A stretch of DNA of 49,639 bases, taken from the NCBI GenBank assembly GCA_045632185.1, contig JAZQWF010000035.1:1-49639 (forward strand). Reading direction: 5' to 3'. Source of the stretch: Eubacteriales bacterium. GTDB lineage: Bacteria; Bacillota; Clostridia; Oscillospirales; CAG-272. Made by a program: the position numbers and the translations under genes. The notes under the pieces are model-generated. The model was not told the DNA's origin and made no database searches. It worked only from the letters and a program-made list of their open reading frames with translations. Shown one piece after another: positions 30,319 through 42,436 of the stretch; position 1 is the first letter of the stretch; each line of letters begins with the position of its first letter.

Positions 30319-30894
30319 ATGACAAAAAAACAAATCCTTACCACCAAGCAAATGACGCTGGGCGCGCTTCTCACGGCAATGGTCGTGGTGTTGCAGCTGC
30401 TTGGCTCCTTTATCCATCTTGGGCCGTTTGCCATATCTCTGGTACTGGTCCCCATCGTAATCGGTGCCGCGACCTGCGGCCCGCTGGTCGCCGCGTGGCT
30501 TGGTCTTTCCTTCGGTGTGGCCGTTCTGCTCAGCGGTGACGCGGCGCTCTTCCTTTCCATTCACGCGCCGGGCACGATCCTGACCGTGCTTTTGAAGGGA
30601 ATTCTGTGTGCCCTTGCAGCCGCATTGGTCTACAAGATTTTGGAGCGTATCAATCTTTACGTTGCCGTGTTCAGCGCCGCCGTTGTCTGCCCGATCGTCA
30701 ATACGGGTATATTCCTTGTCGGCTGCCGCTTGTTCTTCTGGGAAACGATCGTGGCGTGGGGTAACGATGCTGGATTTGCCAATCCTGCCGTATACGCGCT
30801 GCTTGGTCTTGTCGGTGCCAACTTCCTTTTTGAGATGGCGTTCAACCTGCTGCTTTCCCCGATCATCGTCCGACTTTTGAAAATCAAGCTTTGA
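30319..30894 (+). CDS. ECF transporter S component (PanT-like)
   Basis: About 6 TM helices, LVPIVIGA..GP, PIVNTG, ANFLFE. Confidence 0.82.
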   Translation: MTKKQILTTKQMTLGALLTAMVVVLQLLGSFIHLGPFAISLVLVPIVIGAATCGPLVAAWLGLSFGVAVLLSGDAALFLSIHAPGTILTVLLKGILCALAAALVYKILERINLYVAVFSAAVVCPIVNTGIFLVGCRLFFWETIVAWGNDAGFANPAVYALLGLVGANFLFEMAFNLLLSPIIVRLLKIKL

Positions 30895-30938: not shown

Positions 30939-31490
30939 TCAACTTTCCAGCTGGCGGCCAAGGAAGCCCGCCGCGGTCTGGATCAGCTTTGTCTCCACAT
31001 CCATCGTGGGCAGCTTTTTGTCGTTTTCCGTGCCGCCAAGCGACACCACGCAGCCAACCACGTCCCCCTCGGAGAGAATGGGCATGGCACAGCGCACGCC
31101 GAGCGAGCCGCCCTCCGCAATCGCGGGCACGTTTTCGTCCCCCTCGCGGTGCACAAAAAGAGTACGCCCCTCAATGATGCGCTCCATCTCCTCGGAAAGC
31201 GCCTTGTCGGCGTATTCCTTGCGGGACACGCCCGCCGTAGCGATCACCGCATCGCGGTCACAGATCACCACCGCAAGCGAGCAGGTCTTATACAGCGTTT
31301 CCGCGTACTCCCCCGCAAATGCGGCAAGCTCCCCGATCGGTGAGTACTTTTTGAAGATGACCTCGCCCTCTCGGTCGGTGTAAATTTCCAGCGGGTCGCC
31401 CTCGCGGATACGCATGGTTCTTCTTATTTCCTTAGGGATCACAACACGACCAAGGTCGTCGATCCTTCTCACAATTCCTGTGGCTTTCAT
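30939..31490 (-). CDS. spoVT: Stage V sporulation protein T
   Basis: MKATGIVRRIDDLGRVVIPKEIRRTMRIREGDPLEI plus C-terminal GAF domain ending AAGFLGRQLE. Confidence 0.96.
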   Translation of the reverse strand: MKATGIVRRIDDLGRVVIPKEIRRTMRIREGDPLEIYTDREGEVIFKKYSPIGELAAFAGEYAETLYKTCSLAVVICDRDAVIATAGVSRKEYADKALSEEMERIIEGRTLFVHREGDENVPAIAEGGSLGVRCAMPILSEGDVVGCVVSLGGTENDKKLPTMDVETKLIQTAAGFLGRQLES

Positions 31491-31556: not shown

Positions 31557-31745
31557 CGATATTTTGATTTTTATCCACGGCGTGATCATGGAGGTAATGG
31601 CGGCAAGTGCTTACCAATATTATAATGCTATTATAATGTCTTTCTTCCAAAACAGTCAGTTACTGTTGACAAATCCGTCTTTTTTTGTTATAATTTTATA
31701 CACAGTATGGTCATACATTTCACCCTTGCCGAAAGGAGGTCGCCT

Positions 31746-31874: not shown

Positions 31875-31903
31875 TTGACAACTTCTTCACAATGTGCTAT
31901 AAT
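31875..31903 (+). promoter_or_regulatory. Consensus sigmaA promoter with overlapping Rex-like operator
   Basis: TTGACA-N17-TATAAT with TG; TTGACAA-CTTC-TTCACAA (31875-31892) matches 12 of 14 positions of TTGTGAA-N4-TTCACAA. Confidence 0.7.
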
Positions 31904-32034
31904 GTTGACGAATGTGCGTGAAACTCGTGTGGGCGACTTGTGATTCGAACGCATTTTCCCTTTCGGATCGCAAATCACCCACACGGGAAGCACGTGCATA
32001 TCACAAAAAAAGAAAAAGAAAGAGGAAAAGAATC

Positions 32035-33069
32035 ATGAAAAAAATTCTCACTCTCGTCCTTTGCCTTTGCATGATGCTCACCATGGTTACCGTGTTCGCA
32101 TCTTGTGGCAAGGCTGACTACAAGCTCGGCATGGGCGTCGTTGTCAGCATGGACAGCTCCAAGACCGGCACCGCACAGGTCGACGCTACCGTTGCAACCG
32201 TTGTGACCGACGCTGATGGCAAGATCGTTGCTTGCCGCATCGACGTTGCTCAGAACAAGATGAACGTTACCGACGGCGCAATTGAGGCAACCAAGACCTT
32301 CGAGACCAAGATGGAGCTTGGCACCCGTTACGGCATGGCCGGCAAGGTTGATAACGACGACAACGGCGTTATGCTTGAATGGGACGCTCAGGCTAAGGCA
32401 TTCGAGGAGTACGTTGTTGGCAAGACCGCTGCTGACATCAAGGCTATGACCACCCAGGAGAAGAAGGGCCACCAGATCACCACTGATCAGGCTCTGCTTG
32501 ACGCTGGTTGCTCCATGCAGATCACTGACTTCATCGCTGCAGTCGTTAAGGCTTGCGAGGATGAGCAGGGCATGGCATTCACCGCAAAGAAGGGCTTCAC
32601 CCTTGGCGTAGCTGCTAAGACCGTTGTTGATTCCGCTACCACTGCTGCTACCGCTACCGCTGACGGTGTTGTTGCTATGTACACCGACTTCGCTGCTGCA
32701 GTTGTTGCTGACGGCAAGATCGTTGCTGCTCTGAACGACGCTATCCAGCCCAAGATCGGCATGAATGTTGCCGGCGAGATCACCACCAAGACCTTCAAGG
32801 ACACCAAGCGCGCTCTTAAGGGCGACTACGGCATGGCCGGCAAGGTTGACAACAACGACGACGGCGTTATGAAGGAGTGGTTCGAGCAGTCCGCTGCTTT
32901 CTCCGCTCACGTAGTTGGCATGACCGCTGAAGAGGTTGCTGCTATGACCACCCAGGCTGCTAAGGGCCACGACATCTCCACCGATGCCGAGCTCCTCGCT
33001 GCCGGCTGCTCCATGCAGATCACCGGCATCAAGGCCGTTGTTGCACAGGCTGCTACCAACGCTCGCTAA
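32035..33069 (+). CDS. Lipoprotein with two tandem FMN-binding-like domains
   Basis: FASC lipobox; internal duplication (YGMAGKVD..DD.GVM.EW..Q..AF...VVG.T...LL.AGCSMQIT twice); next to apbE; codon bias typical of highly expressed genes. Confidence 0.8.
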   Translation: MKKILTLVLCLCMMLTMVTVFASCGKADYKLGMGVVVSMDSSKTGTAQVDATVATVVTDADGKIVACRIDVAQNKMNVTDGAIEATKTFETKMELGTRYGMAGKVDNDDNGVMLEWDAQAKAFEEYVVGKTAADIKAMTTQEKKGHQITTDQALLDAGCSMQITDFIAAVVKACEDEQGMAFTAKKGFTLGVAAKTVVDSATTAATATADGVVAMYTDFAAAVVADGKIVAALNDAIQPKIGMNVAGEITTKTFKDTKRALKGDYGMAGKVDNNDDGVMKEWFEQSAAFSAHVVGMTAEEVAAMTTQAAKGHDISTDAELLAAGCSMQITGIKAVVAQAATNAR

Positions 33070-33096
33070 TTTCATACCAAGCAAGGGAGTAGAAAT

Positions 33097-34152
33097 TTGA
33101 AAATCTTCAAATCTCTCGTCTGCCTTTGCGCAGTTTTGGGGCTGCTCGTCGTTTTGGCGGGCTGCCCTAATTCTGCTCATAAGGAGGAACCGAAAGGGAT
33201 GGTATATTACACCTTTTTTGATACGGTGTCCTATATTTACAGCTATGCCAATGACTCGCAGGAGGTTTTTGAGGCAAACTGTGAAAGGGCGTCCGACATT
33301 TTGGAGGAGTACCATCGCCTTTTTGATATCTACTATGCATACTCCGGCATCAACAATCTGAAAACCATCAACGAGAACGCCGGAAAGGAGCCGATCAAGG
33401 TCGATCAAAAGCTGATCGATTTCCTTCTTTACGCCAAGGAGCTTTATACGCTGACAGGTGGCGAAATGAACGTGATGATGGGCTCGGTGCTCTCTCTTTG
33501 GCACGATTGTCGCGAAGCGGCAAGCACGGATCCCGCCAATGCGGCAATTCCCGAAAAAGATGCGTTGGACGAGGCGGCCTTGCATACAGATATTTCCCTT
33601 TTGGAAATTGATACGGTGAACGGCACCGTCCGCATCACCGATCCCGCTGCCCGCATCGACGTGGGGGCCCTGGGAAAGGGCTATGCCACCGAAAAGGCGG
33701 CAGAATATCTGCGCTCCCAAAATGCTGACGGCTACGTCCTCAACATCGGCGGCAACATTCGCATCATCGGCCACAAGCCGGACGGCTCCGGTTGGGGCAC
33801 CGGCATCAAAAATCCTGCCGACACCTCTCAATATGCGCTCAAACTGACCATTGCCGACACGTCCTGCGTGACCTCCGGCGATTACGAGCGATACTTCACT
33901 GTAAACGGCACAAAATATCATCACGTTATCGACAAAGACACTCTTATGCCTGCGAGCTATTTCAGCTCGGTCACGATCATTACCCCCAACAGCGCGCTTG
34001 CCGATGCGCTTTCTACGGCTCTGTTCACTATGAGCTATGAAGACGGTCTTGCACTGATCAACCGAATCGGCAACGTGGAGGTTCTTTGGATCTCTACGAA
34101 CGGAGAGATGAAAATGAGCGAGGGACTTAGCTCCCTTGTAATGGAAGAATAA
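33097..34152 (+). CDS. apbE: FAD:protein FMN transferase ApbE (lipoprotein)
   Basis: LAGC lipobox, FDT, IDVGALGKGYA, NIGGN, TSGDYERY, YHHVID, ADALSTALF. Confidence 0.95.
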   Translation: MKIFKSLVCLCAVLGLLVVLAGCPNSAHKEEPKGMVYYTFFDTVSYIYSYANDSQEVFEANCERASDILEEYHRLFDIYYAYSGINNLKTINENAGKEPIKVDQKLIDFLLYAKELYTLTGGEMNVMMGSVLSLWHDCREAASTDPANAAIPEKDALDEAALHTDISLLEIDTVNGTVRITDPAARIDVGALGKGYATEKAAEYLRSQNADGYVLNIGGNIRIIGHKPDGSGWGTGIKNPADTSQYALKLTIADTSCVTSGDYERYFTVNGTKYHHVIDKDTLMPASYFSSVTIITPNSALADALSTALFTMSYEDGLALINRIGNVEVLWISTNGEMKMSEGLSSLVMEE

Positions 34153-34179
34153 AAAATATTTAAATTAGGAGTAGTGCTA

Positions 34180-35556
34180 ATGTTATTCAAGAAAAAGAAC
34201 ATTTCGTCCCTGCACATTCCTCACAACAAAAACACGGCGGGCCTTGTTCCCACAAGGATCGACACCCCCAAGGAAGTCGTTCTGCCCATGAACATCACGT
34301 CCCATGGTATGAACGCCTCCAAGCCCGCGGTTTGCGTTGGAGATCACGTGCGCGTCGGACAAGTTGTTGCATCCGAGGAAGGCAGATTTTCCACCTTCAT
34401 TCACGCTCCCATTTCCGGAACGGTAACCTCGATTGCTCCCATCAAGTTCAGATCTGAGCAAGAGGTCGTTGCCATTACGATCGAGAGCGACGGCAAGATG
34501 GAGCTTTCCCCCGACATCAAGAAGCCCGAATTCAGCAACTGCACCGAATTCCTGCAAGCAGTGAACAACGGCGGCATCGTGGGCCTTGGCGGTGCGGCAT
34601 TCCCCATCTGGGCAAAGCTGCGCGAGGCAACCAACCCCGATTACAACGTTGACACCGTGCTGATCAACGCGGCAGAGTGTGAGCCCTACATCACCAGCGA
34701 CCATCGCATGATGCTGGACCACCCCGATCTGATCGCTGACGGTATCGAGTACCTGCGCACCTACATGAGCGAGTATCTCGGCAACGCAACCTTCAAGATC
34801 TGCATCGAGAAGAACAAGCCCGATGCGATCGAGGTATTGAAGCAGACCTTTGCAGGCAAGGATTACGTGGTGATCCACGAGTTGGATGCCATCTATCCCC
34901 AGGGCGCAAAGCAGGTCATGCTTTACAACGCAACCGGCCGTGTTGCCATTGCGGGTAAGCGTTTCCCCTCCTTCGGTGCCATCATCATCAACGTTTCCTC
35001 TATTGCCAAAATGGCAGAATACCTCAACACGGGTATCCCGCTTATCGAGCGTATCGTAACCGTGGACGGTCCTGCCGTTGCAGAGCCCAAAATGCTGATC
35101 GCTCCCATCGGCACGCGCGTCAGCGAGATCCTCAAATACGTTCCCTTGAAGGAAGGTGTTGAGCTGGGTAAGGTCATCATCGGCGGTCCTATGAACGGTA
35201 CCTCCGTTTATTCTGTCGACGCTCCCCTTTCCAAGGTTGCCAACGCAGTGCTTCTGTTCTCCGAGGAGGACGCCGTTCTGCCCCAGGCGTCTGCGTGCAT
35301 CAACTGCGGTCGTTGCATTGAAAAGTGCCCCGTAAGCATTTCCGTGGCACAGGTTGCCCGCGCACTGCGCACCAGAAACGAGGATCTGAGAGCACAGCGC
35401 CTGATCGACACCGGCGTTCGTCAGTGTGTAGACTGTGCATGCTGCTCTTACGTATGCCCTGCCAACCGTCCTTTGCTGCAAATCAACAATCAGGCAAATT
35501 CCTTCCTGAAAAAGTACGCAGCTGCACAGAAAGAAAAAGAAGGAGGTAACAAGTAA
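34180..35556 (+). CDS. rnfC: RnfC-like NAD(P)H/FMN and 2x[4Fe-4S] subunit
   Basis: IHAPISG, GIVGLGGAAFP, INAAECEPYITSD, YPQG, GGPM.G, CINCGRCIEKCP, CVDCACCSYVCP. Confidence 0.92.
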   Translation: MLFKKKNISSLHIPHNKNTAGLVPTRIDTPKEVVLPMNITSHGMNASKPAVCVGDHVRVGQVVASEEGRFSTFIHAPISGTVTSIAPIKFRSEQEVVAITIESDGKMELSPDIKKPEFSNCTEFLQAVNNGGIVGLGGAAFPIWAKLREATNPDYNVDTVLINAAECEPYITSDHRMMLDHPDLIADGIEYLRTYMSEYLGNATFKICIEKNKPDAIEVLKQTFAGKDYVVIHELDAIYPQGAKQVMLYNATGRVAIAGKRFPSFGAIIINVSSIAKMAEYLNTGIPLIERIVTVDGPAVAEPKMLIAPIGTRVSEILKYVPLKEGVELGKVIIGGPMNGTSVYSVDAPLSKVANAVLLFSEEDAVLPQASACINCGRCIEKCPVSISVAQVARALRTRNEDLRAQRLIDTGVRQCVDCACCSYVCPANRPLLQINNQANSFLKKYAAAQKEKEGGNK

Positions 35557-36497
35557 TGTCCCTTCACATCTCCGCTACCCCCCATATTCATCAGAAGGGC
35601 TCCTCCACGCGCAACATCATGCTTGACGTGGTGATCGCTATGCTCCCCGCCACGGTTGCGGGCATCGTGATCTTCGGTCTGAAAGCCCTTTTCACGGTTC
35701 TTGCCTGCGTGGCAAGCGCTGTTGCCGCTGAGTACGTATTCAACCTCTGCACGCGCAGAAAGCAGACCATTGGCGACCTTTCCGCCGTGGTTACCGGTCT
35801 TCTGCTGGCGCTGAACCTCAGCACCGCAGTACCGCTTTGGCAGTGTGCCATCGGCTCGATCTTCGCAATCATTGTTGTCAAGTGCCTGTTCGGCGGTCTT
35901 GGCAAGAACATTGTGAACCCCGCAATCACCGCACGCGTATTTATGCTGCTGACCTTCTCCGCTGTGGCGGCCGTTGCAACGCCCACCATCGTGGAGGTTA
36001 CCGCAGGCGCAACCCCTCTCGCAGCTCTTAATCAGGGCGCAGAGATCGCCGCAAAGCAAGCTCCCTCCATTCTGGATCTGTTCCTTGGTCTGCACGGCGG
36101 CGCCATCGGCGAGACCTGCGCACTCGCGCTGATCATCGGCGGCATCTACCTTGTAGTTCGCAAGGTCATCAAGTGGTACGTTCCCGTATCCTTCATCGCA
36201 ACCACCTTCCTTTGCTACTTCTTCTTCGGCGGCTTTGACGCCACCTTCGCACTGCAACACGTGCTGGCTGGCGGTCTTTTGCTTGGTGCCATCTTCATGG
36301 CAACCGACTACGTCACCACCCCCTTCACCAACAAGGGCCGCGTGGTATTCGGTATTGGCGCCGGTCTTCTGACCTTCGTGATCAGAAAGTTTGGTGTATA
36401 CCCCGAGGGCGTTTCCATTGCGATCCTGACCATGAACCTTGTCACCCCCTTCATCAATGATTTCACCAAGAAAAAGACGCTGGGAGGTATTAAGTAA
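35556..36497 (+). CDS. rnfD: RnfD subunit
   Basis: DLSAVVTGLLLA, FGGLGKNIVNPA, TAGATPL flavinylation motif, GAIGET, FMATDYVT, YPEG. Confidence 0.95.
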   Translation: MSLHISATPHIHQKGSSTRNIMLDVVIAMLPATVAGIVIFGLKALFTVLACVASAVAAEYVFNLCTRRKQTIGDLSAVVTGLLLALNLSTAVPLWQCAIGSIFAIIVVKCLFGGLGKNIVNPAITARVFMLLTFSAVAAVATPTIVEVTAGATPLAALNQGAEIAAKQAPSILDLFLGLHGGAIGETCALALIIGGIYLVVRKVIKWYVPVSFIATTFLCYFFFGGFDATFALQHVLAGGLLLGAIFMATDYVTTPFTNKGRVVFGIGAGLLTFVIRKFGVYPEGVSIAILTMNLVTPFINDFTKKKTLGGIK

Positions 36498-37771
36498 TGA
36501 AATTGCTCAAAACATTCGGTATCCTTCTCATCGTTGTTGCCCTGTTCGGCACCGCTATGTTCGGCCTGAACTTTGTAACCGGCCCGATCATTGAAGCAAA
36601 CAAGGCCGGCGCTGCCAATGACCGCCTGAATGCTGTTATGCCCGGCGGCACGGCGTACGAGGACATCACCTCCACCCTTTCCAACGTTCCCGCTAACGTG
36701 AAGAAGGTAAGCAAAGAAACCAGCGGCCTTGGCTTCGTTATTGAATGTACCGCAACCTCGCAGTACACCGGTGGCGATCCCATGGATATCGTTCTCGGCG
36801 TAGATGCTGAGGGCAAGATCTGCGGCATCAACCTGGTATCCCACTCCGAGTCCCTGATCTTCGGTGCTGATTACCCCGCAACCTATATCGGCAAGGACTC
36901 CGCTCTCACGGGAGTTGAGCTGTATGCCGGCTCCACCTTCTCCTCCACCGCATTCAAGAACGCCGTTAGCGACGCTATGGGCGTACTGATCTCCAACAAC
37001 CTGATCAAGGAGGGCGTCAAGACCGAGGAGCAGATCCTCGCCGAGATGATCCCCACGCTGCACACCGGTCTTTCCGCCGGCGGCATTCTGAAAGCAGAAA
37101 AGATCGTTGCAAGCGGTAACATCGTCGAGGGCTATAAGGCACTCAACGGCTCCGGCTTTGCCTTCATTATGCAAAGCGGCGATGCCAAGCTGCTTGTGCT
37201 TGTCAATGCAGCGGGCGCTTGCAAGGTCGTTGACACCACCGGTGCAGACGTAACCGCCGCCAACGAGGCACTTTGCACCGAGGCACTCACCGCGGCAGGC
37301 ACCTTCAAGGATTACACGGCCGCACTCAGCACCACGATCCTTGCTCATTACAGCGATGCAACCGCTATCACCAAGCTGGACTTCACCACCTTTGGTAACG
37401 TTGCATTTGCCGTATCCTTCCAATCTGCCGGAAACACCTACTACGCATTCTACTCTGTGCCCCTTTCCTACGAGGACAGCGTAATGTCCATCACGACCAT
37501 TCTGGACGCCAACGGCGCCATCGTGAAGCAGGATATCAAGCAGATGGCATTCGGCCACGGCGTTGAGTATATGGACGGCATCAAGGATTTGGTCAACAGC
37601 TCCTCCTCTGCATTCCAGAACTTCTTGGGCAAGTTCGCAGGGCTTACCGAGGACACTCTTACCGATAGCGTGCTGGTCACCGGTGCAACCGTTTCCACCA
37701 GCGCAGTGAAGCTTGCTACCGCTGATGCGTTTGCTGCATTCAAATCCATCAACAACGGAGGTAACCAGTAA
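36497..37771 (+). CDS. rnfG: Extended RnfG-like subunit with two FMN-binding domains
   Basis: N-terminal TM followed by VTGPIIE; motifs AGSTFSS and VTGATVST; 424 aa, about twice a typical RnfG. Confidence 0.8.
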   Translation: MKLLKTFGILLIVVALFGTAMFGLNFVTGPIIEANKAGAANDRLNAVMPGGTAYEDITSTLSNVPANVKKVSKETSGLGFVIECTATSQYTGGDPMDIVLGVDAEGKICGINLVSHSESLIFGADYPATYIGKDSALTGVELYAGSTFSSTAFKNAVSDAMGVLISNNLIKEGVKTEEQILAEMIPTLHTGLSAGGILKAEKIVASGNIVEGYKALNGSGFAFIMQSGDAKLLVLVNAAGACKVVDTTGADVTAANEALCTEALTAAGTFKDYTAALSTTILAHYSDATAITKLDFTTFGNVAFAVSFQSAGNTYYAFYSVPLSYEDSVMSITTILDANGAIVKQDIKQMAFGHGVEYMDGIKDLVNSSSSAFQNFLGKFAGLTEDTLTDSVLVTGATVSTSAVKLATADAFAAFKSINNGGNQ

Positions 37772-38391
37772 TGAATAAGACGAAAACTTCCTACCTCCTG
37801 AGAGGCACGCCCTCCGTGCTTCTGGTGCTTGGTGCCGGCTTTGTTATGGCATCCAGCGCCGATATCCGTGCCGCTCTTGGCATGGGCGCAGCTGTGCTGC
37901 TTGCGATGCTGCTTAGCTCCATCGTGATCTCCGCTCTGCACAAGTTTATCCCCTGCTACGCAAAAACCCCTGTTTACCTGATGATCATCACCGGCTTCGT
38001 TTCCCTGATCTCCATGCTGATGCAGGCATTCTTCCCCATTGTGGTAGAGATGCTCGGCGTGCATCTGGCAACGCTTGCCGTCAGCGCGGTCATCTTCCGC
38101 GACTGCGAAGAGGTTGCGGATTGCTGCGACGAGATCGTAACGATCAAAACCTCGCTTGTAACCGGCGCGTTCTTCACCGTTGTGATGGTGGTTTGCGCAC
38201 TCATTCGTGAGATCTTCGGCAACGGCTCGATCTTCGGCCTTGAAATCAAGTTCATGCAGAACGTCAAGATCTCTGCTCTTGCAGGCGCCTTTGGCGGTTA
38301 CCTTGTGCTTGCTATCGTGATGGCTGTGATCAACAAGCTCACCGGCCTTCACCATCATCTGGAAGAAAACGCAGAAAAGGAGGATAACTGA
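37771..38391 (+). CDS. rnfE: RnfE-like membrane subunit lacking the conserved Fe-S Cys ligands
   Basis: LGMG, VISAL.KFIP, IREIFG.G.IFG; LGAGF replaces LGxCP and VSAVI replaces VNCII. Confidence 0.85.
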   Translation: MNKTKTSYLLRGTPSVLLVLGAGFVMASSADIRAALGMGAAVLLAMLLSSIVISALHKFIPCYAKTPVYLMIITGFVSLISMLMQAFFPIVVEMLGVHLATLAVSAVIFRDCEEVADCCDEIVTIKTSLVTGAFFTVVMVVCALIREIFGNGSIFGLEIKFMQNVKISALAGAFGGYLVLAIVMAVINKLTGLHHHLEENAEKEDN

Positions 38392-38393
38392 TT

Positions 38394-38957
38394 ATGGAAT
38401 TCAACGTCATTTTGGGCATCCTTCTTGCCGGCCTTCTTTCTAACAACTACGCGTTGCTTCACTTCCTTGGTACCGGCGCTGTGCTGGAAAACGAGCGCTC
38501 CTCCAAGAAATCTCTCATGCTTGGTCTTGGCACCACCGTGGTCATGCTGATCTCCACCCTGATCACCCACCCCATCAACCAGTATCTGCTTGCCAAGGTC
38601 CCCTACCTGCAAACGATGGTCTTTGTACTGGTCGTTCTGGCAGTTGTAGAGCTTCTTCACATTGCTGCAAGCAAGCTGCTTGACGGTTACTGCCGCGCAG
38701 ATTTCGTCAAGTTCGCCATCAACGGCGCGGTTCTCGGTCTTTGTATCCACAACACCGAGCACAGCTTCGGCGAGGCGATCGTTACCTCCGTGGCTGTCGG
38801 TATCGGCTTTATGCTGACGATGACGCTTTTCGCCAAGATCAAGGACGATTACGTTGACGAGGAAGCGATCCCCGCTTCCTTCCAGGGTCTGCCCATCGCC
38901 CTCTTGACTGCCGGCATGATCGCACTGGCAATGCTGGCTCTGCAATTCAAATTCTGA
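38394..38957 (+). CDS. rnfA: RnfA-like membrane subunit lacking the conserved Fe-S Cys ligands
   Basis: NNYALLHFLG, YLQTMVFVLV, IPASFQGLPIALLTAGMIALA; FLGTG replaces FLGxCP and INGAVLG replaces TNCAVLG. Confidence 0.87.
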   Translation: MEFNVILGILLAGLLSNNYALLHFLGTGAVLENERSSKKSLMLGLGTTVVMLISTLITHPINQYLLAKVPYLQTMVFVLVVLAVVELLHIAASKLLDGYCRADFVKFAINGAVLGLCIHNTEHSFGEAIVTSVAVGIGFMLTMTLFAKIKDDYVDEEAIPASFQGLPIALLTAGMIALAMLALQFKF

Positions 38958-39310
38958 TGAGCAAAAAAGATCTGATCCTGATCGGGATCATCCTTGCGGT
39001 GATCCTGATCTCGTTTCCGGTGATCTCGCTATTCAAGCAGGACGGTGCTTACGTGATCGTTCGCGTGGATGGCAACGAGGTCGCCAGATACGATCTGAAC
39101 GAGAACGGGCAATATGATCTCAACGGAGGAACAAACGTCCTTCGCATTGAGGACGGTACCGCCTATCTCGTGTCCGCCGACTGTCCCGATCATCTTTGCG
39201 TCAATCAGGGCAAGATCGACGAGAGCGGCGAGGTGATCACGTGCCTGCCCAACCGCCTTACCATAACGGTGTACGGCGCGGGCGACAACGAGGTCGAGCT
39301 GATCAGTTAA
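38957..39310 (+). CDS. NusG domain II-containing (DUF1312) membrane-anchored protein
   Basis: KKDLILI TM anchor; ADCPDHLCV.QG.I...GEVITCLPNR. Confidence 0.9.
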   Translation: MSKKDLILIGIILAVILISFPVISLFKQDGAYVIVRVDGNEVARYDLNENGQYDLNGGTNVLRIEDGTAYLVSADCPDHLCVNQGKIDESGEVITCLPNRLTITVYGAGDNEVELIS

Positions 39311-39328
39311 CAAAGAAAGGAGAGCATC

Positions 39329-39823
39329 ATGAAAGCCAAACGAGTGACCTTTTTGGGATTATCCATCGCACTTGCTATGATCCTCTCCTTCGTAGAGCAT
39401 CAGATCCCCGCGCTGGTCGCAATCCCGGGCATCAAGGTAGGTCTTCCCAACATCGTGATGGTGTTTCTTCTGTACCGTGTGGGCTGGAAGGAAACCGTCA
39501 CCGTCAGCATCATTCGCATTCTTTTGGTGTCGATGCTATTCGGCAACGCGCAAACCATGACGTTCAGTATCGCGGGCGCGGTGCTGAGTTTATTGGGTAT
39601 GATCCTGCTCAAAAAGCTGAACTGGTTTTCCTGCATCACCGTCAGCATTGCCGGTGGTATCCTGCATAATATCGGGCAGATCATCGCCGCCGTCTTCTGG
39701 ACGGGTACGGCGCAGATCGCCTTCTATCTCCCCGTTCTGCTGATCAGCGGCACGGTGGCGGGCACCTTGATCGGCATTCTTTCCGGCATGATGGTCAAGC
39801 GCATGGAAAAATGGAAATTCTAA
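39329..39823 (+). CDS. Gx transporter family / heptaprenyl diphosphate synthase component I-like protein
   Basis: ALAMILSFVE..IP...PGIKVGLPNI, SIAG, HNIGQI, YLPVL. Confidence 0.9.
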   Translation: MKAKRVTFLGLSIALAMILSFVEHQIPALVAIPGIKVGLPNIVMVFLLYRVGWKETVTVSIIRILLVSMLFGNAQTMTFSIAGAVLSLLGMILLKKLNWFSCITVSIAGGILHNIGQIIAAVFWTGTAQIAFYLPVLLISGTVAGTLIGILSGMMVKRMEKWKF

Positions 39824-39824
39824 C

Positions 39825-40147
39825 AACAAAAGAAAAACACCCCCAAACGGGGGTGTTTTTCTTTTGTTCGCGCACATTTCCAAGGCACTCAAAACCAGAT
39901 GCAGAAGCCGTGATCGCAATACGCCGCCATATTTCAATGCCGCATGTGGTGCGGGCGCGGCTCACAAACAAAAACCCGCACCAAACGGTGCGGGTTTTGT
40001 ATGTTCTGCGCGCTTCCCCAGGCGCTCGAAATCAGATGCAGAAGGCGTGATCGCGAACGCCGCTGTATTGGAATACTGCAAGTGAACGAGCACGGCTAAT
40101 AAACAAAAAACACCCCCAAACGGGGTTTTTTTTGTTATGTTCTGCGC
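39825..40147. repeat. Degenerate ~137-bp tandem repeat (two full units, three hairpins); the first hairpin also serves as terminator
   Basis: CAGATGCAGAAG.CGTGATCGC at 39896 and 40033; hairpins centred on CCAAACGG at about 39843, 39981 and 40116. Confidence 0.8.
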
Positions 40148-40170: not shown

Positions 40171-41580
40171 TTACTTGAGCAGAGCCTCAGCAATAGCCTT
40201 TGCAGCCGTCTTGCCTGCGCCCATTGCGGAGATAACGGTTGCAGCACCGGTTACGGCGTCACCGCCTGCGTAAACGGCGTCACGGGAGGTCAGACCGTCC
40301 TCGTTGACGACGATGCCGCCCCAACGGTTGACCTCAAGGCCCTTGGTGGTGGACTTGATCAGGGGGTTGGGGGAGGTACCGATGGACATAACCACGGTGT
40401 CAACGGCAAGCTCGAAATCGCTGCCGGGAACAACAACGGGACGGCGTCTGCCCTTCTCGTCGGGCTCGCCAAGCTCCATCTTCACGCACTTCATGCCCGT
40501 GACGAAGCCATTCTTGGGATCGCGGGGATCCTCGGGATTGTTGTAACCAACGATCTCGGTGGGGTTGCACAGAAGCTGGAATACAATTCCCTCCTCCTCA
40601 GCATGCTCGACCTCTTCCTTACGTGCAGGAAGCTCCTCCATAGAACGACGGTAAACGATGTAAACAGTCTCAGCACCAAGACGAAGCGCGGTACGAGCGG
40701 CGTCCATAGCCACATTACCACCGCCGACAACGGCAACCTTGCCACCCTTCATGATGGGGGTGTCGGGATTGTCGAGGTATGCCTTCATCAAGTTGCTTCT
40801 GGTCAGGAACTCGTTTGCGGAGTAAACGCCCTTGTAGGACTCGCCGGGGATACCCATGAAGTTGGGCAGACCTGCGCCGGAGCCAACGAATACGGCCTCA
40901 TAGCCCATCTCGAACAGCTCGTCAATGGTGAGCGTCTTACCGATAACCACGTTGGCCTCGATCTTCACGCCAAGTGCCTTCAAGCCCTCAACCTCCTTAG
41001 CAACGATTGCCTTGGGAAGACGGAATTCGGGAATACCGTAAACCAGCACGCCGCCTGCGGTGTGCAGTGCCTCAAATACAGTAACCTCAAAGCCGGCCTT
41101 TGCCAGGTCGCCTGCGCAGGTAAGGCCGGAGGGGCCGGAACCGACGATAGCCACCTTGTGGCCGTTGGACTCGGGCTTTACGGGAGCTGCGGTGCAGAAG
41201 GTATTGTGCCAGTCAGCAACAAATCTTTCCAGACGGCCGATACCAACGCTCTCGCCCTTGATACCGCGTACACACTTGGACTCGCACTGCGTTTCCTGAG
41301 GGCAAACACGGCCGCAAACTGCGGGCAGAGAGGAGGACTTGGTGATGATCTGGTATGCACCCTCGAAATCACCCTCCTTGATCTTGGTGATGAATTCGGG
41401 AATGTGGATCTTTACAGGGCAACCCTGTACGCAGGGCATATGCTTGCAGTTCAGGCAGCGATTTGCCTCGTCGATCGCCTGCTCCTCGGTATAGCCGAGA
41501 GCAACCTCTTGGAAATTGCGCGCGCGGACCTTTGCGTCCTGCGTGGGCATTTCGTTACGTTTCAGAGCCATATTTGCCAT
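40171..41580 (-). CDS. nfnB: NfnB (large subunit of the electron-bifurcating transhydrogenase; GltD-like)
   Basis: RCLNCK..PCVQGCPV, CGRVCPQETQCE, VGSGPSGL, YGIPEFRLP, VVGGGNVAMD, AGGDAVTGAATV; paired with nfnA. Confidence 0.9.
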   Translation of the reverse strand: MANMALKRNEMPTQDAKVRARNFQEVALGYTEEQAIDEANRCLNCKHMPCVQGCPVKIHIPEFITKIKEGDFEGAYQIITKSSSLPAVCGRVCPQETQCESKCVRGIKGESVGIGRLERFVADWHNTFCTAAPVKPESNGHKVAIVGSGPSGLTCAGDLAKAGFEVTVFEALHTAGGVLVYGIPEFRLPKAIVAKEVEGLKALGVKIEANVVIGKTLTIDELFEMGYEAVFVGSGAGLPNFMGIPGESYKGVYSANEFLTRSNLMKAYLDNPDTPIMKGGKVAVVGGGNVAMDAARTALRLGAETVYIVYRRSMEELPARKEEVEHAEEEGIVFQLLCNPTEIVGYNNPEDPRDPKNGFVTGMKCVKMELGEPDEKGRRRPVVVPGSDFELAVDTVVMSIGTSPNPLIKSTTKGLEVNRWGGIVVNEDGLTSRDAVYAGGDAVTGAATVISAMGAGKTAAKAIAEALLK

Positions 41581-41581
41581 A

Positions 41582-42436
41582 TTACTGCACCTCTTTCTTA
41601 AACAGATTGCAGGCAGCCTCGTGTGCGTGGCGCTCGAAGTCCGCGTACATTCTGCCTCTGGACATAGCTTCGTCGAAATCGACCTCGTAGCCGTTGAAGT
41701 CAGGACCGTCTACGCAAGCGAACTTGGTGACCTTCTTGCCGTCAACGTTCAGGGTAAGACGGCAACCGCCGCACATGCCCGTGCCGTCGATCATAACGGG
41801 GTTCATAGAAACGGTAACGGGCGTGCCGAAGGGCTTAGCCGTTGCCACCACGAACTTCATCATGATCAGAGGACCGATGGTGATGATCATATCAAACTTT
41901 TCGCCCTTTTCCAGCATTTCCTTCAAGGGCATGGTCACGTTGCCGTGCTCGCCGTAAGAACCGTCGTCGGTCATCACGCGCAACGTATTAGAGCAGGCCT
42001 TGAACTCGTCCTCCAAAATCAGCAGATCCTTGTTACGGAAGCCGATGATGCTGGTAACCTCAGCGCCCATCTCGTGAAGCGCCTCAGCAATGGGCATTGC
42101 GATGGCACAGCCAACGCCGCCGCCCACGATGCAAACCTTCTTCAAGCCGTCCAGGTGAGTGGGCTCACCAAGGGGGCCTACGAAATCCTGAATAAAGTCG
42201 CCTGCTTCCTTATGAGCAAGCTTCTCGGTGGTGCCGCCAACGACCTGGAAGATGATCTTCACGCCGCCCTTAACGGGATCAACGCCTGCAACGGTCAGGG
42301 GAATACGCTCACCCTCTGCGTCAACACGCAGGATAATGAACTGGCCGGGCTTTGCCTTGTTGGCCACCAGGGGTGCCTCGATCCACAGCTGGATAACGGT
42401 GGGGTTCAGCACCTTTTTGTCTAAAATCTTGTACAT
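41582..42436 (-). CDS. nfnA: NfnA (small subunit; FAD/NAD and [2Fe-2S])
   Basis: PGQFII, GERIPLT, VGPLG, VGGGVG, IGPLIMM, MIDGTGMCGGCR, CVDGPDF. Confidence 0.9.
   Translation of the reverse strand: MYKILDKKVLNPTVIQLWIEAPLVANKAKPGQFIILRVDAEGERIPLTVAGVDPVKGGVKIIFQVVGGTTEKLAHKEAGDFIQDFVGPLGEPTHLDGLKKVCIVGGGVGCAIAMPIAEALHEMGAEVTSIIGFRNKDLLILEDEFKACSNTLRVMTDDGSYGEHGNVTMPLKEMLEKGEKFDMIITIGPLIMMKFVVATAKPFGTPVTVSMNPVMIDGTGMCGGCRLTLNVDGKKVTKFACVDGPDFNGYEVDFDEAMSRGRMYADFERHAHEAACNLFKKEVQ

Follow-up and report, generated by a model that had tools for sequence, protein, structure and literature searches.

In the canonical Rnf complex (structures 7ZC6, 9ERI and 8AHX) a membrane [2Fe-2S] cluster of RnfA and RnfE accepts the electrons of RnfB and is described as the switch for alternating access (PMC12174285). 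Its ligands in Acetobacterium woodii are C25 and C113 of RnfA and C25 and C108 of RnfE, and mutating these four cysteines abolishes ferredoxin-dependent NAD+ reduction (PMC11889175). The cluster, found in RnfA/E and in the NqrD/E subunits of Na+-NQR, is called strictly conserved, and is described as the gate for Na+ pumping as well as for electron transfer (PMC12174285, PMC11889175). Here we describe a nine-gene operon at positions 32035-39823 of the + strand of contig JAZQWF010000035.1, from a genome labelled Eubacteriales bacterium (GTDB Oscillospirales, CAG-272); the whole contig, 49,639 nucleotides, is the window that was analysed. The genes are, in order, a surface lipoprotein gene, apbE, rnfC, rnfD, rnfG, rnfE, rnfA, a NusG_II gene and a PF07456 gene. 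The operon has no rnfB, and its RnfA and RnfE have none of the four cluster ligands. Our preferred reading, to which we give a probability of about one half, is that it encodes a paralogous Rnf (RnfC-D-G-E-A) without the ferredoxin half of the U-shaped canonical electron path, which would transfer electrons outward from NADH to surface flavoproteins.

Compared with the canonical complexes, the operon keeps the cofactor residues of RnfC, RnfD and the first domain of RnfG, the gene order C-D-G-E-A and the membership of RnfA and RnfE in PF02508, whereas RnfB and the four [2Fe-2S] ligands are missing, RnfA carries a three-residue deletion, RnfG is doubled, and RnfA and RnfE score at about one third of their family cut-offs. 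The double RnfG, the ApbE and the PF07456 gene are shared with the RNF clusters with multi-flavinylated RnfG (PMC8238504) and with the eetB-associated Rnf of Clostridia (PMC9973259). Unlike the window, the former clusters are defined, as that source describes them, by the presence of RnfB, and they keep the cysteines. Meheust et al. (2021, PMC8238504) propose that multiple flavinylation of RnfG opens another path, to extracytosolic acceptors; with the ferredoxin path deleted in the clade of the window, the outward path would therefore be the sole one left. A one-way route from NAD(P)H to extracytosolic flavin mononucleotide (FMN) through an NqrB/RnfD-type protein is likewise attributed to the two-subunit NQR/RNF-like system (Meheust et al., 2021; Huang et al., 2024, PMC11334425). 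As described in PMC8238504 and PMC11334425, that system pairs an NqrC/RnfG-like protein with an NqrB/RnfD protein that carries a fused PF00175 NAD-binding domain, and the RnfD-like flavinylation site is not conserved; in contrast, the window RnfD (313 aa) is unfused and keeps its Thr, and RnfC, RnfE and RnfA are present.

The loss of rnfB also has a counterpart in the proposed origin of Na+-NQR, in which an rnf operon was duplicated and rnfB lost, giving an rnfCDGEA intermediate (Reyes-Prieto et al., 2014, PMC4014512). The window clade is an extant rnf paralogue minus rnfB, but whereas NQR retained the NqrD/E cluster, took on NqrF and removed the cofactors from NqrA, the window clade went the other way, keeping the cofactors of RnfC while losing the A/E cluster, and its operon in the window has no NqrF-like gene. 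Finally, the flavin-based extracellular electron transfer (EET) system of Listeria (FmnB, PplA, EetA/B, FmnA, Ndh2 and demethylmenaquinone) resembles the operon in its extracytosolic ApbE, its PF07456 gene and its two-domain surface lipoprotein. It differs in that no genes for Ndh2, quinone synthesis or FmnA occur in the operon (where alone they were looked for), that the membrane would be crossed via RnfC/D/G, and that the window lipoprotein is not a Pfam FMN_bind protein. We found no published description of an Rnf lacking both RnfB and the cluster, and a phrase search of the text of a 2025 RNF/NQR review returned no mention of an RnfB-less Rnf; supplementary file 1 of PMC8238504 (flavinylation gene clusters), which lay outside the search, may list such operons without comment.

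Genes were called from a list of open reading frames (ORFs) together with Pfam and NCBIfam profile scans of the window proteins; the assembly to which the contig belongs comprises 96 contigs and is 78.8% complete. All nine ORFs are intact and lie head to tail and tightly packed on the + strand. The first encodes the surface lipoprotein (32035-33069; 344 aa; lipobox FASC), which consists of two repeats of ~160 aa and has no Pfam match, and the second an ApbE FAD:protein FMN transferase (33097-34152; PF02424, E 2.4e-65) with its own lipobox (LAGC). RnfC (34174-35556; PF01512, E 1e-33) and RnfD (35556-36497; PF03116 as the sole Pfam match) pass their NCBIfam cut-offs (TIGR01945, 337.8 bits against 245.95; TIGR01946, 294.8 bits against 207). 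RnfG (36497-37771; 424 aa; PF04205, E 2.8e-11 at residues 93-161) falls far below, as do the RnfE-like protein (37771-38391; PF02508, E 1e-23; TIGR01948, 87.9 bits against 213.4) and the RnfA-like protein (38394-38957; TIGR01943, 89.2 bits against 229.3). The last two genes encode membrane proteins, one with a NusG_II domain (38957-39310; PF07009, E 7e-29) and one of the EetB-type, ECF-S-like family PF07456 (39329-39823; E 2e-39). Terminator-like hairpins follow on the + strand at 39971-39998 (12-bp stem) and 40112-40126 (followed by a T run), and the arrangement agrees with the single co-oriented, tightly packed and terminated operon described in an initial interpretation made from the letters of the window alone (hereafter the sequence-only reading).

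That reading had also held that only the RnfC-RnfD-RnfG half of the electron wire is intact, and this half is indeed the sole part with its cofactor sites kept. RnfC has the NADH/FMN domain and two CxxCxxCxxxCP [4Fe-4S] motifs, the second of which is kept in 55/55 clade members and the first in 51 of 55 sequences, as far as the tabulated patterns extend; the protein scores as an RnfC, NqrA profiles reaching just 46-64 bits. RnfD matches 7zc6_D (E 2.8e-88) and keeps the flavinylation Thr within TAGATPL, and its alignment to 9eri_D shows that it has likewise kept the residues corresponding to N123 and D249, by which riboflavin is held in the A. woodii protein (PMC11889175). RnfG is composed of a transmembrane helix, a first FMN_bind domain (Thr147), a middle region and a diverged FMN_bind-like second domain (Thr398). 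The model of residues 1-171 resembles the solved RnfG and NqrC structures (7zc6_G: Z 14.9, 165 residues aligned, RMSD 3.9), and T147 and T398 are invariant in 26/26 aligned sequences. The second domain aligns over its full length with the C-terminal RnfG domains of two canonical relatives (L047 and L050, see below), which themselves match FMN_bind at E 2e-13 and 3.5e-12.

The membrane part of the complex is altered at the cluster-ligand positions. In alignment, the RnfA ligand positions are G28 and G111 (FLGICPFLG and TTNCAVLG in canonical relatives, FLGTGAVL and AI---NGAVLG in the window), while those of RnfE are G23 and A106 (LGTCPTLA and VNCIILGRAE in canonical relatives, LGAGFVMA and VSAVIFRD in the window). 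The segment of RnfA that leads to the cluster (PLITTNC) is in addition shortened by three residues. The replacement of all four cysteines, as claimed in the sequence-only reading, extends to the whole clade: among sequences with at least 85% coverage, the window included, RnfA positions 28 and 111 are non-Cys in 75/75 and RnfE positions 23 and 106 in 71/71. The same loss was found in 121/121 RnfA sequences when the window was joined with the 120 best metagenome RnfA clusters, and at least 120 such clusters share at least 76% identity with the window RnfA. New cysteines have become conserved elsewhere (RnfA C100 in 75/75, RnfA C117 in 74/75 and RnfE C142 in 69/71), their places on the solved RnfA/E being assigned by sequence alignment alone. 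Both proteins are still recognizable members of the family (RnfA matches 7zc6_A at E 1.8e-25 and RnfE matches 9eri_E at E 1.2e-19), yet a canonical relative from the same bacterial family scores 256.6 bits against TIGR01943 and 228.5 bits against TIGR01948, compared with the 89.2 and 87.9 bits of the window proteins.

The absence of rnfB from the operon, likewise noted from the letters alone, was followed into the genome: no protein in the 78.8% complete assembly exceeds the TIGR01944 cut-off, and PF02508 matches there only the RnfA and RnfE of the operon. In a class-wide sample PF02508 matches occur in 306 of 398 other genomes, in every case with a best E of 4.7e-56 or below, which is the canonical range; the genome of the window stands apart with a best E of 1.4e-23.

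Loci of the same type were collected by scanning a single genome of each GTDB species with a pattern, which yielded 76 with the window type of RnfA. All nine genes are present (at least 70% coverage) and collinear in 56/76, and since this order recurs in other genomes it is above chance; the other 20 are mostly cut by contig ends. Individual departures are seen in L085, which lacks the NusG_II and PF07456 genes despite downstream sequence, and in L119, which lacks RnfG. A tblastn search of the surrounding 10 kb on either side with six RnfB proteins from canonical relatives gave a weak, partial match at one of the 76 loci, L090 (36% identity, 0.44 coverage, opposite strand). The carriers are recorded as gut or faecal metagenome-assembled genomes (MAGs) of ruminants, humans and mice, plus one cultured isolate, whose locus is L110 and whose record title is Neglectibacter caecimuris strain M00184. 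Six loci (L084, L089, L113, L121, L125 and L127) have record titles naming Anaeroplasmatales, Bacilli or Bacteroidales and form a sub-clade of the RnfD tree, a pattern suggesting that the operon was transferred horizontally or that bins were loosely labelled.

Selection on the genes was estimated as pairwise dN/dS (the NG86 ratio of nonsynonymous to synonymous substitution rates) for 15 close pairs picked by hand from the tree, the pairs not being independent of one another. The values for RnfE (0.00-0.13) and RnfA (0.03-0.18) are similar to those for RnfC (0.00-0.20, 10 pairs) and RnfD (0.04-0.15); those for RnfG (0.08-0.32) and the lipoprotein (0.00-0.48, 14 pairs) extend higher. Judged from these sequences the RnfB-less operon is a conserved clade under purifying selection and no decaying copy. 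The decaying duplicate that the sequence-only reading had named as fatal to its proposal is ruled out by the 0.00-0.18 of RnfA/E.

The origin of the clade can be approached through its canonical relatives. In a family sample of 151 genomes the variant type of RnfA (59-82% identity to the window) occurs in three other genomes, and the remaining RnfA fall into tiers of 33-39% and 24-32% identity. RnfB adjoins RnfA in all ten canonical loci examined, and the three canonical RnfB scored against TIGR01944 reach 100.7-116.6 bits, over the cut-off. Both RnfA cysteines are kept in 9/10 (L044 has Ser at the first site), and those of RnfE are kept in the nine loci read (L046 excluded). Two of these loci, L047 and L050, have the arrangement rnfC-D-G(double)-E-A-B-NusG_II-PF07456-lipoprotein-apbE, with intact cysteines and a bona fide RnfB. 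A quick RnfD tree of 62 variant and 10 canonical rows, with SH-aLRT support only, places the variant in one clade (support 100) and separates that clade, together with L047, L050, L044, L042 and L046, from loci of the plainer rnfCDGEAB type (support 100). Because the variant groups with accessory-bearing canonical operons, the double RnfG, the lipoprotein, the ApbE and the EetA/B-like genes were in place before RnfB and the cluster were lost; the accessory set is inherited, not recruited. That these genes define the RnfB-less system is contradicted by L047 and L050. The sequence-only reading had proposed to test whether four features co-occur across genomes: the loss of rnfB does go with the loss of the cysteines throughout the clade, but the double RnfG and the lipoprotein are also found in these two canonical loci.

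Two of the canonical relatives have peculiarities of their own. At L044 (G121:C210, 3009-3602) the operon includes RnfB, the RnfA has Ser at its first ligand position (FLAISPFLG) and the RnfG resembles the variant RnfG along its whole length, so that this operon may be an intermediate form. At L042 (G074:C10, 8378-9832, - strand) RnfA and RnfB of a canonical operon are fused in a 484-aa ORF, and an open frame of 490 aa occurs in G150.

Eighteen other carriers of the variant were searched for a second, canonical rnf, as the sequence-only reading had suggested, with a divided outcome. An additional high-scoring RnfA/E pair (180-231 bits) was found in 11/18, and an RnfB-type gene follows it in all 8 genomes checked; another 6/18 have the variant pair alone, and in the five of those six that were tested, whose assembly completeness is not given, no RnfB scores over the cut-off. 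The variant is thus often a second complex beside the canonical Rnf, yet appears able to stand alone. One of the 18 carriers (G160, which also contains L113) has a second and very divergent cluster, L128 (G160:C21:7000-25334), whose RnfC, RnfD and RnfA matches are 24-29% identical to the window proteins and which has an RnfE-like ORF visible in translation. The ligand sites are occupied by E and S in its RnfA-like protein, and in its RnfE-like protein N-G stands in place of the canonical N-C; no RnfB was found near L128, and no canonical pair was found in the genome.

The loss of the ligands reaches beyond this clade. When 1.84 billion representatives were searched with a profile of the variant RnfA, a search biased towards variant-like sequences, 1860 matches reached E <= 0.001, of which the best 150 were examined; 117 of these are full-length (160-260 aa), and in a MAFFT alignment 41 keep both cysteines, 23 keep one and 53 keep none. 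A scan of metagenome contigs with an 'ALNSAVLG'-type profile then gave 80 loci (L129-L208), most of them from records with the title human gut metagenome; many are near-identical and so not independent, and 45 are 9 kb or longer. RnfB was found in none of the 45, and 43 have the order lipoprotein-apbE-rnfC-D-G-E-A, the other two being cut at the 5' end. The first ligand site of RnfA is A, G, T or S and the second is S, and RnfA lacks a cysteine at the equivalent of C117 (sequence LGLAVN). RnfE has N-L or D-L at its second site, the one of its two ligand sites that was read, and the lipoprotein motif is ASC[ST]. A NusG_II gene adjoins in 5/45 and a PF07456 gene in 4/45. These loci form a second RnfB-less lineage, deeper than the window clade and with the same core architecture.

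The two repeats of the surface lipoprotein are 53% identical (E 6e-37), and each ends in AGC[ST] ahead of a helix, the predicted flavinylation sites being the Ser after Cys159 and the Ser after Cys325. The AGC does not vary among 25/25 aligned homologues. The protein has at least 2280 homologues, none functionally named (those with names are called 'hypothetical protein'), and among the 120 homologues listed one has a single Pfam domain, PF11065. An AlphaFold2 model (pLDDT 91.3, pTM 0.88) shows two similar alpha/beta domains, for which Foldseek found nothing in the PDB at E <= 0.001. The top VIA-align rows from an unfiltered search, all under the level that the tool deems reliable, include 2kzx (Z 5.9, 116 residues aligned, RMSD 4.0), 3o6u (Z 5.5), 8p2a (Z 4.2) and 7zc6_G (Z 2.5), of which 3o6u has been cited as an FMN_bind_1 exemplar (10.1101/2024.03.13.584918, published as PMC11334425). 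The weak neighbours overlap those of the genuine first domain of RnfG (lipoyl-ligase C-domains, IscU/NifU and xanthine-oxidase FAD domains are included). A profile of the lipoprotein family searched against PDB sequences found 2kzx at E 0.011, with SGAT aligned to AGCS, and the nearest named ESM Atlas cluster with a Pfam family is FMN_bind (score 0.85). A Cys before the flavinylation Thr is also seen in RnfG, where five of 67 clade members read GCT at the domain-1 site. Together these observations make diverged FMN_bind-like domains plausible, and the lipoprotein is a candidate substrate of ApbE that may be flavinylated. A complex prediction of RnfG (30-424) with the lipoprotein (26-344) gave a score of 0.16 (mark 0.32), which says nothing either way on binding.

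The ApbE of the operon is the sole ApbE match in its assembly. EetA we take to be a NusG_II (PF07009) protein, and the NusG_II gene of the operon sits in the eetA position, beside eetB. Homologues of eetB are defined as PF07456; EetB is described as binding FAD and as needed to export it for FmnB/ApbE, and in 572 genomes of Clostridia eetB is co-localized with Rnf genes, in 3328 genomes with eetA (PMC9973259). The comparison with Listeria EET made in the sequence-only reading was therefore right for this gene, which it had called a Gx transporter. By analogy the PF07456 protein is likely an FAD exporter for ApbE, and because of that role of EetB and of its co-localization with Rnf and eetA, the NusG_II and PF07456 genes are best read as cofactor supply and not as part of the electron wire.

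Combining these elements, the preferred reading is of a complex unable to run ferredoxin:NAD+ oxidoreduction, in which electrons would pass from NADH to RnfC, to the riboflavin and FMN of RnfD, to the first and then the second covalent FMN of RnfG on the outer membrane face, to the lipoprotein and finally to an extracytosolic acceptor. The FMNs would be attached outside the cell by ApbE, itself a predicted lipoprotein, with FAD supplied by the PF07456 protein together with the NusG_II protein. RnfA and RnfE would be kept as a required scaffold or for a role that does not involve the cluster, and under current pump models there would be no Na+ coupling via the cluster.

Behind the operon and convergent to it lies an NfnAB-like pair (40171-41580 and 41582-42436, both on the - strand; 575.8 bits against TIGR01316, above its cut-off, and 376 bits against PRK06222), which is present as a single copy in the assembly. 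A pair of this kind is adjacent in 30/76 loci, 27 times directly downstream on the same strand (in 24 of these with gaps of ~40-176 bp) and three times upstream, and in 0/10 canonical Rnf loci and 0/45 second-lineage loci. As it adjoins none of the second-lineage loci and is the only copy in its own assembly, the pair looks housekeeping.

Several observations weigh against outward transfer as set out above. The lipoprotein has no FMN_bind (PF04205) match even at E <= 10, whether scanned whole or as single repeats, and its homologues in L047 and L050 likewise have none; an hhalign comparison with RnfG profiles aligned 15 columns at 11.7% probability; and in its AGC[ST] motif Cys replaces the Ala of the [S/T]GA[S/T] of ApbE substrates. 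The FMN-binding-like lipoprotein of the sequence-only reading thus retains its two repeats, while its likeness to FMN_bind is weak and its motif non-canonical. The RnfG with two FMNs is similarly placed, with both Thr invariant and yet no Pfam match for the second domain of the window protein when scanned alone. The assembly contains no further FMN_bind protein that could act as terminal reductase. A pure scaffold role would leave both the strong purifying selection on RnfA/E and their three gained and conserved cysteines unaccounted for. Finally, the RnfB encoded elsewhere in 11/18 other carriers might be able to act in trans, a genome that is 78.8% complete may have a canonical Rnf that was simply missed in assembly, and the NfnAB-like pair may point to a cytoplasmic partner that the proposed route does not account for.

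The rival that fares best, although we consider it rather unlikely, uses the same wire in the inward direction, from an external reductant to NAD+, or for an assimilatory purpose such as Fe(III) reduction or the repair of envelope thiols by a Cys-flavin pair of the lipoprotein. Electron transfer by Rnf is described as reversible (PMC12174285), some flavinylation clusters are reported to be tied to iron assimilation (PMC8238504), and an invariant Cys directly precedes the candidate flavinylated Ser/Thr of each repeat (AGC[ST] or ASC[ST]). However, no gene for transporting or reducing such a substrate is found in the operon, and uphill reduction of NAD+ needs an energy coupling that cluster-less RnfA/E would not be expected to give.

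A second rival would leave the complex an oxidoreductase of NAD+ with ferredoxin or another low-potential donor, an RnfB encoded in trans or another Fe-S/flavin partner docking to it and the new cysteines forming a replacement relay. The RnfB genes of the 11/18 carriers, the near-invariance of the three cysteines (75/75, 74/75 and 69/71), the purifying selection on RnfA/E and the FAD/Fe-S pair beside the operon in 30/76 loci would all fit this. We nevertheless judge it quite unlikely, given the 6/18 carriers without canonical RnfA/E and their 0/5 RnfB, the loss of all four ligand positions in an RnfA whose cluster segment is three residues shorter, and the second lineage, which lacks the equivalent of C117, has no Cys at either RnfA ligand site and never has the NfnAB-like pair adjacent. 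That an rnf duplication left the operon behind as a non-functional remnant, or that the fragmentary MAG produced it as an artefact, as the 96 contigs, the 78.8% completeness and the low NCBIfam scores of RnfA, RnfE and RnfG might suggest, is hardly credible in view of its nine intact ORFs, its recurrence in 56/76 loci including long contigs and a cultured isolate, the RnfA/E dN/dS of 0.00-0.18 and the at least 120 metagenome RnfA clusters with at least 76% identity.

A wider claim, which we put forward tentatively and hold to be less probable than its failure, is that the cluster-less, RnfB-less Rnf make up a broad third functional class of Rnf/Nqr next to the Fd:NAD+ and NADH:quinone pumps, serving as quinone- and cytochrome-independent conduits from NADH directly to covalently flavinylated surface proteins of gut Bacillota, with a new Cys-flavin substrate of ApbE and a cluster-independent role of RnfA/E that is unforeseen by current pump models. 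The breadth would lie in the two deep lineages (76 species-level genomes and 45 metagenome loci) that share the architecture, in the divergent cluster of G160 and in the 53 of 117 full-length RnfA-like representatives without either ligand Cys.

The region upstream of the operon contains a sigma-70-like promoter (31875-31903, + strand) ~130 nt 5' of the lipoprotein start, with TTGACA, a 17-nt spacer and TATAAT with TG, and a second further upstream (31666-31694, + strand); both are 12/12 matches to the consensus, and for the first that match is the sole basis. A search of sequencing runs for the window listed 14 with DNA, two of them containing at least half of the words searched, and none with RNA. 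The sequence TTGACAACTTCTTCACAA (31875-31892, + strand), which overlaps the -35 element, resembles a Rex-type operator. As a regulatory site it was rejected as too weak: 11/57 upstream regions match at two or fewer mismatches, compared with 3.7 (maximum 8) in shuffles. The 5' leader forms a hairpin (31910-32002, + strand; -49.4 kcal/mol, z -7.1) that none of 200 shuffles equalled in stability. One G-C to A-U double change distinguishes it from L053, long stable leader hairpins of different sequence also occur in relatives, and an Rfam scan of the whole window, this hairpin included, returned 0 matches. Just upstream lie the S component of an ECF (energy-coupling factor) transporter (30319-30894, + strand; PF12822, E 1e-13) and a SpoVT-type regulator (30939-31490, - strand), neither of which, at E <= 1e-10, was detected beside the operon in any of the 76 other loci.

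The clade can be regarded as a natural experiment on what the rest of the machine does alone and why RnfA and RnfE are still needed, and as a living parallel to the intermediate without rnfB through which Na+-NQR has been proposed to arise (PMC4014512). If electrons are exported, strictly anaerobic gut Oscillospirales and their relatives, mostly known from MAGs, would gain a direct path from NADH to the cell surface, and models of their redox balance and of their dealings with flavins, oxygen, iron and host compounds would be affected.

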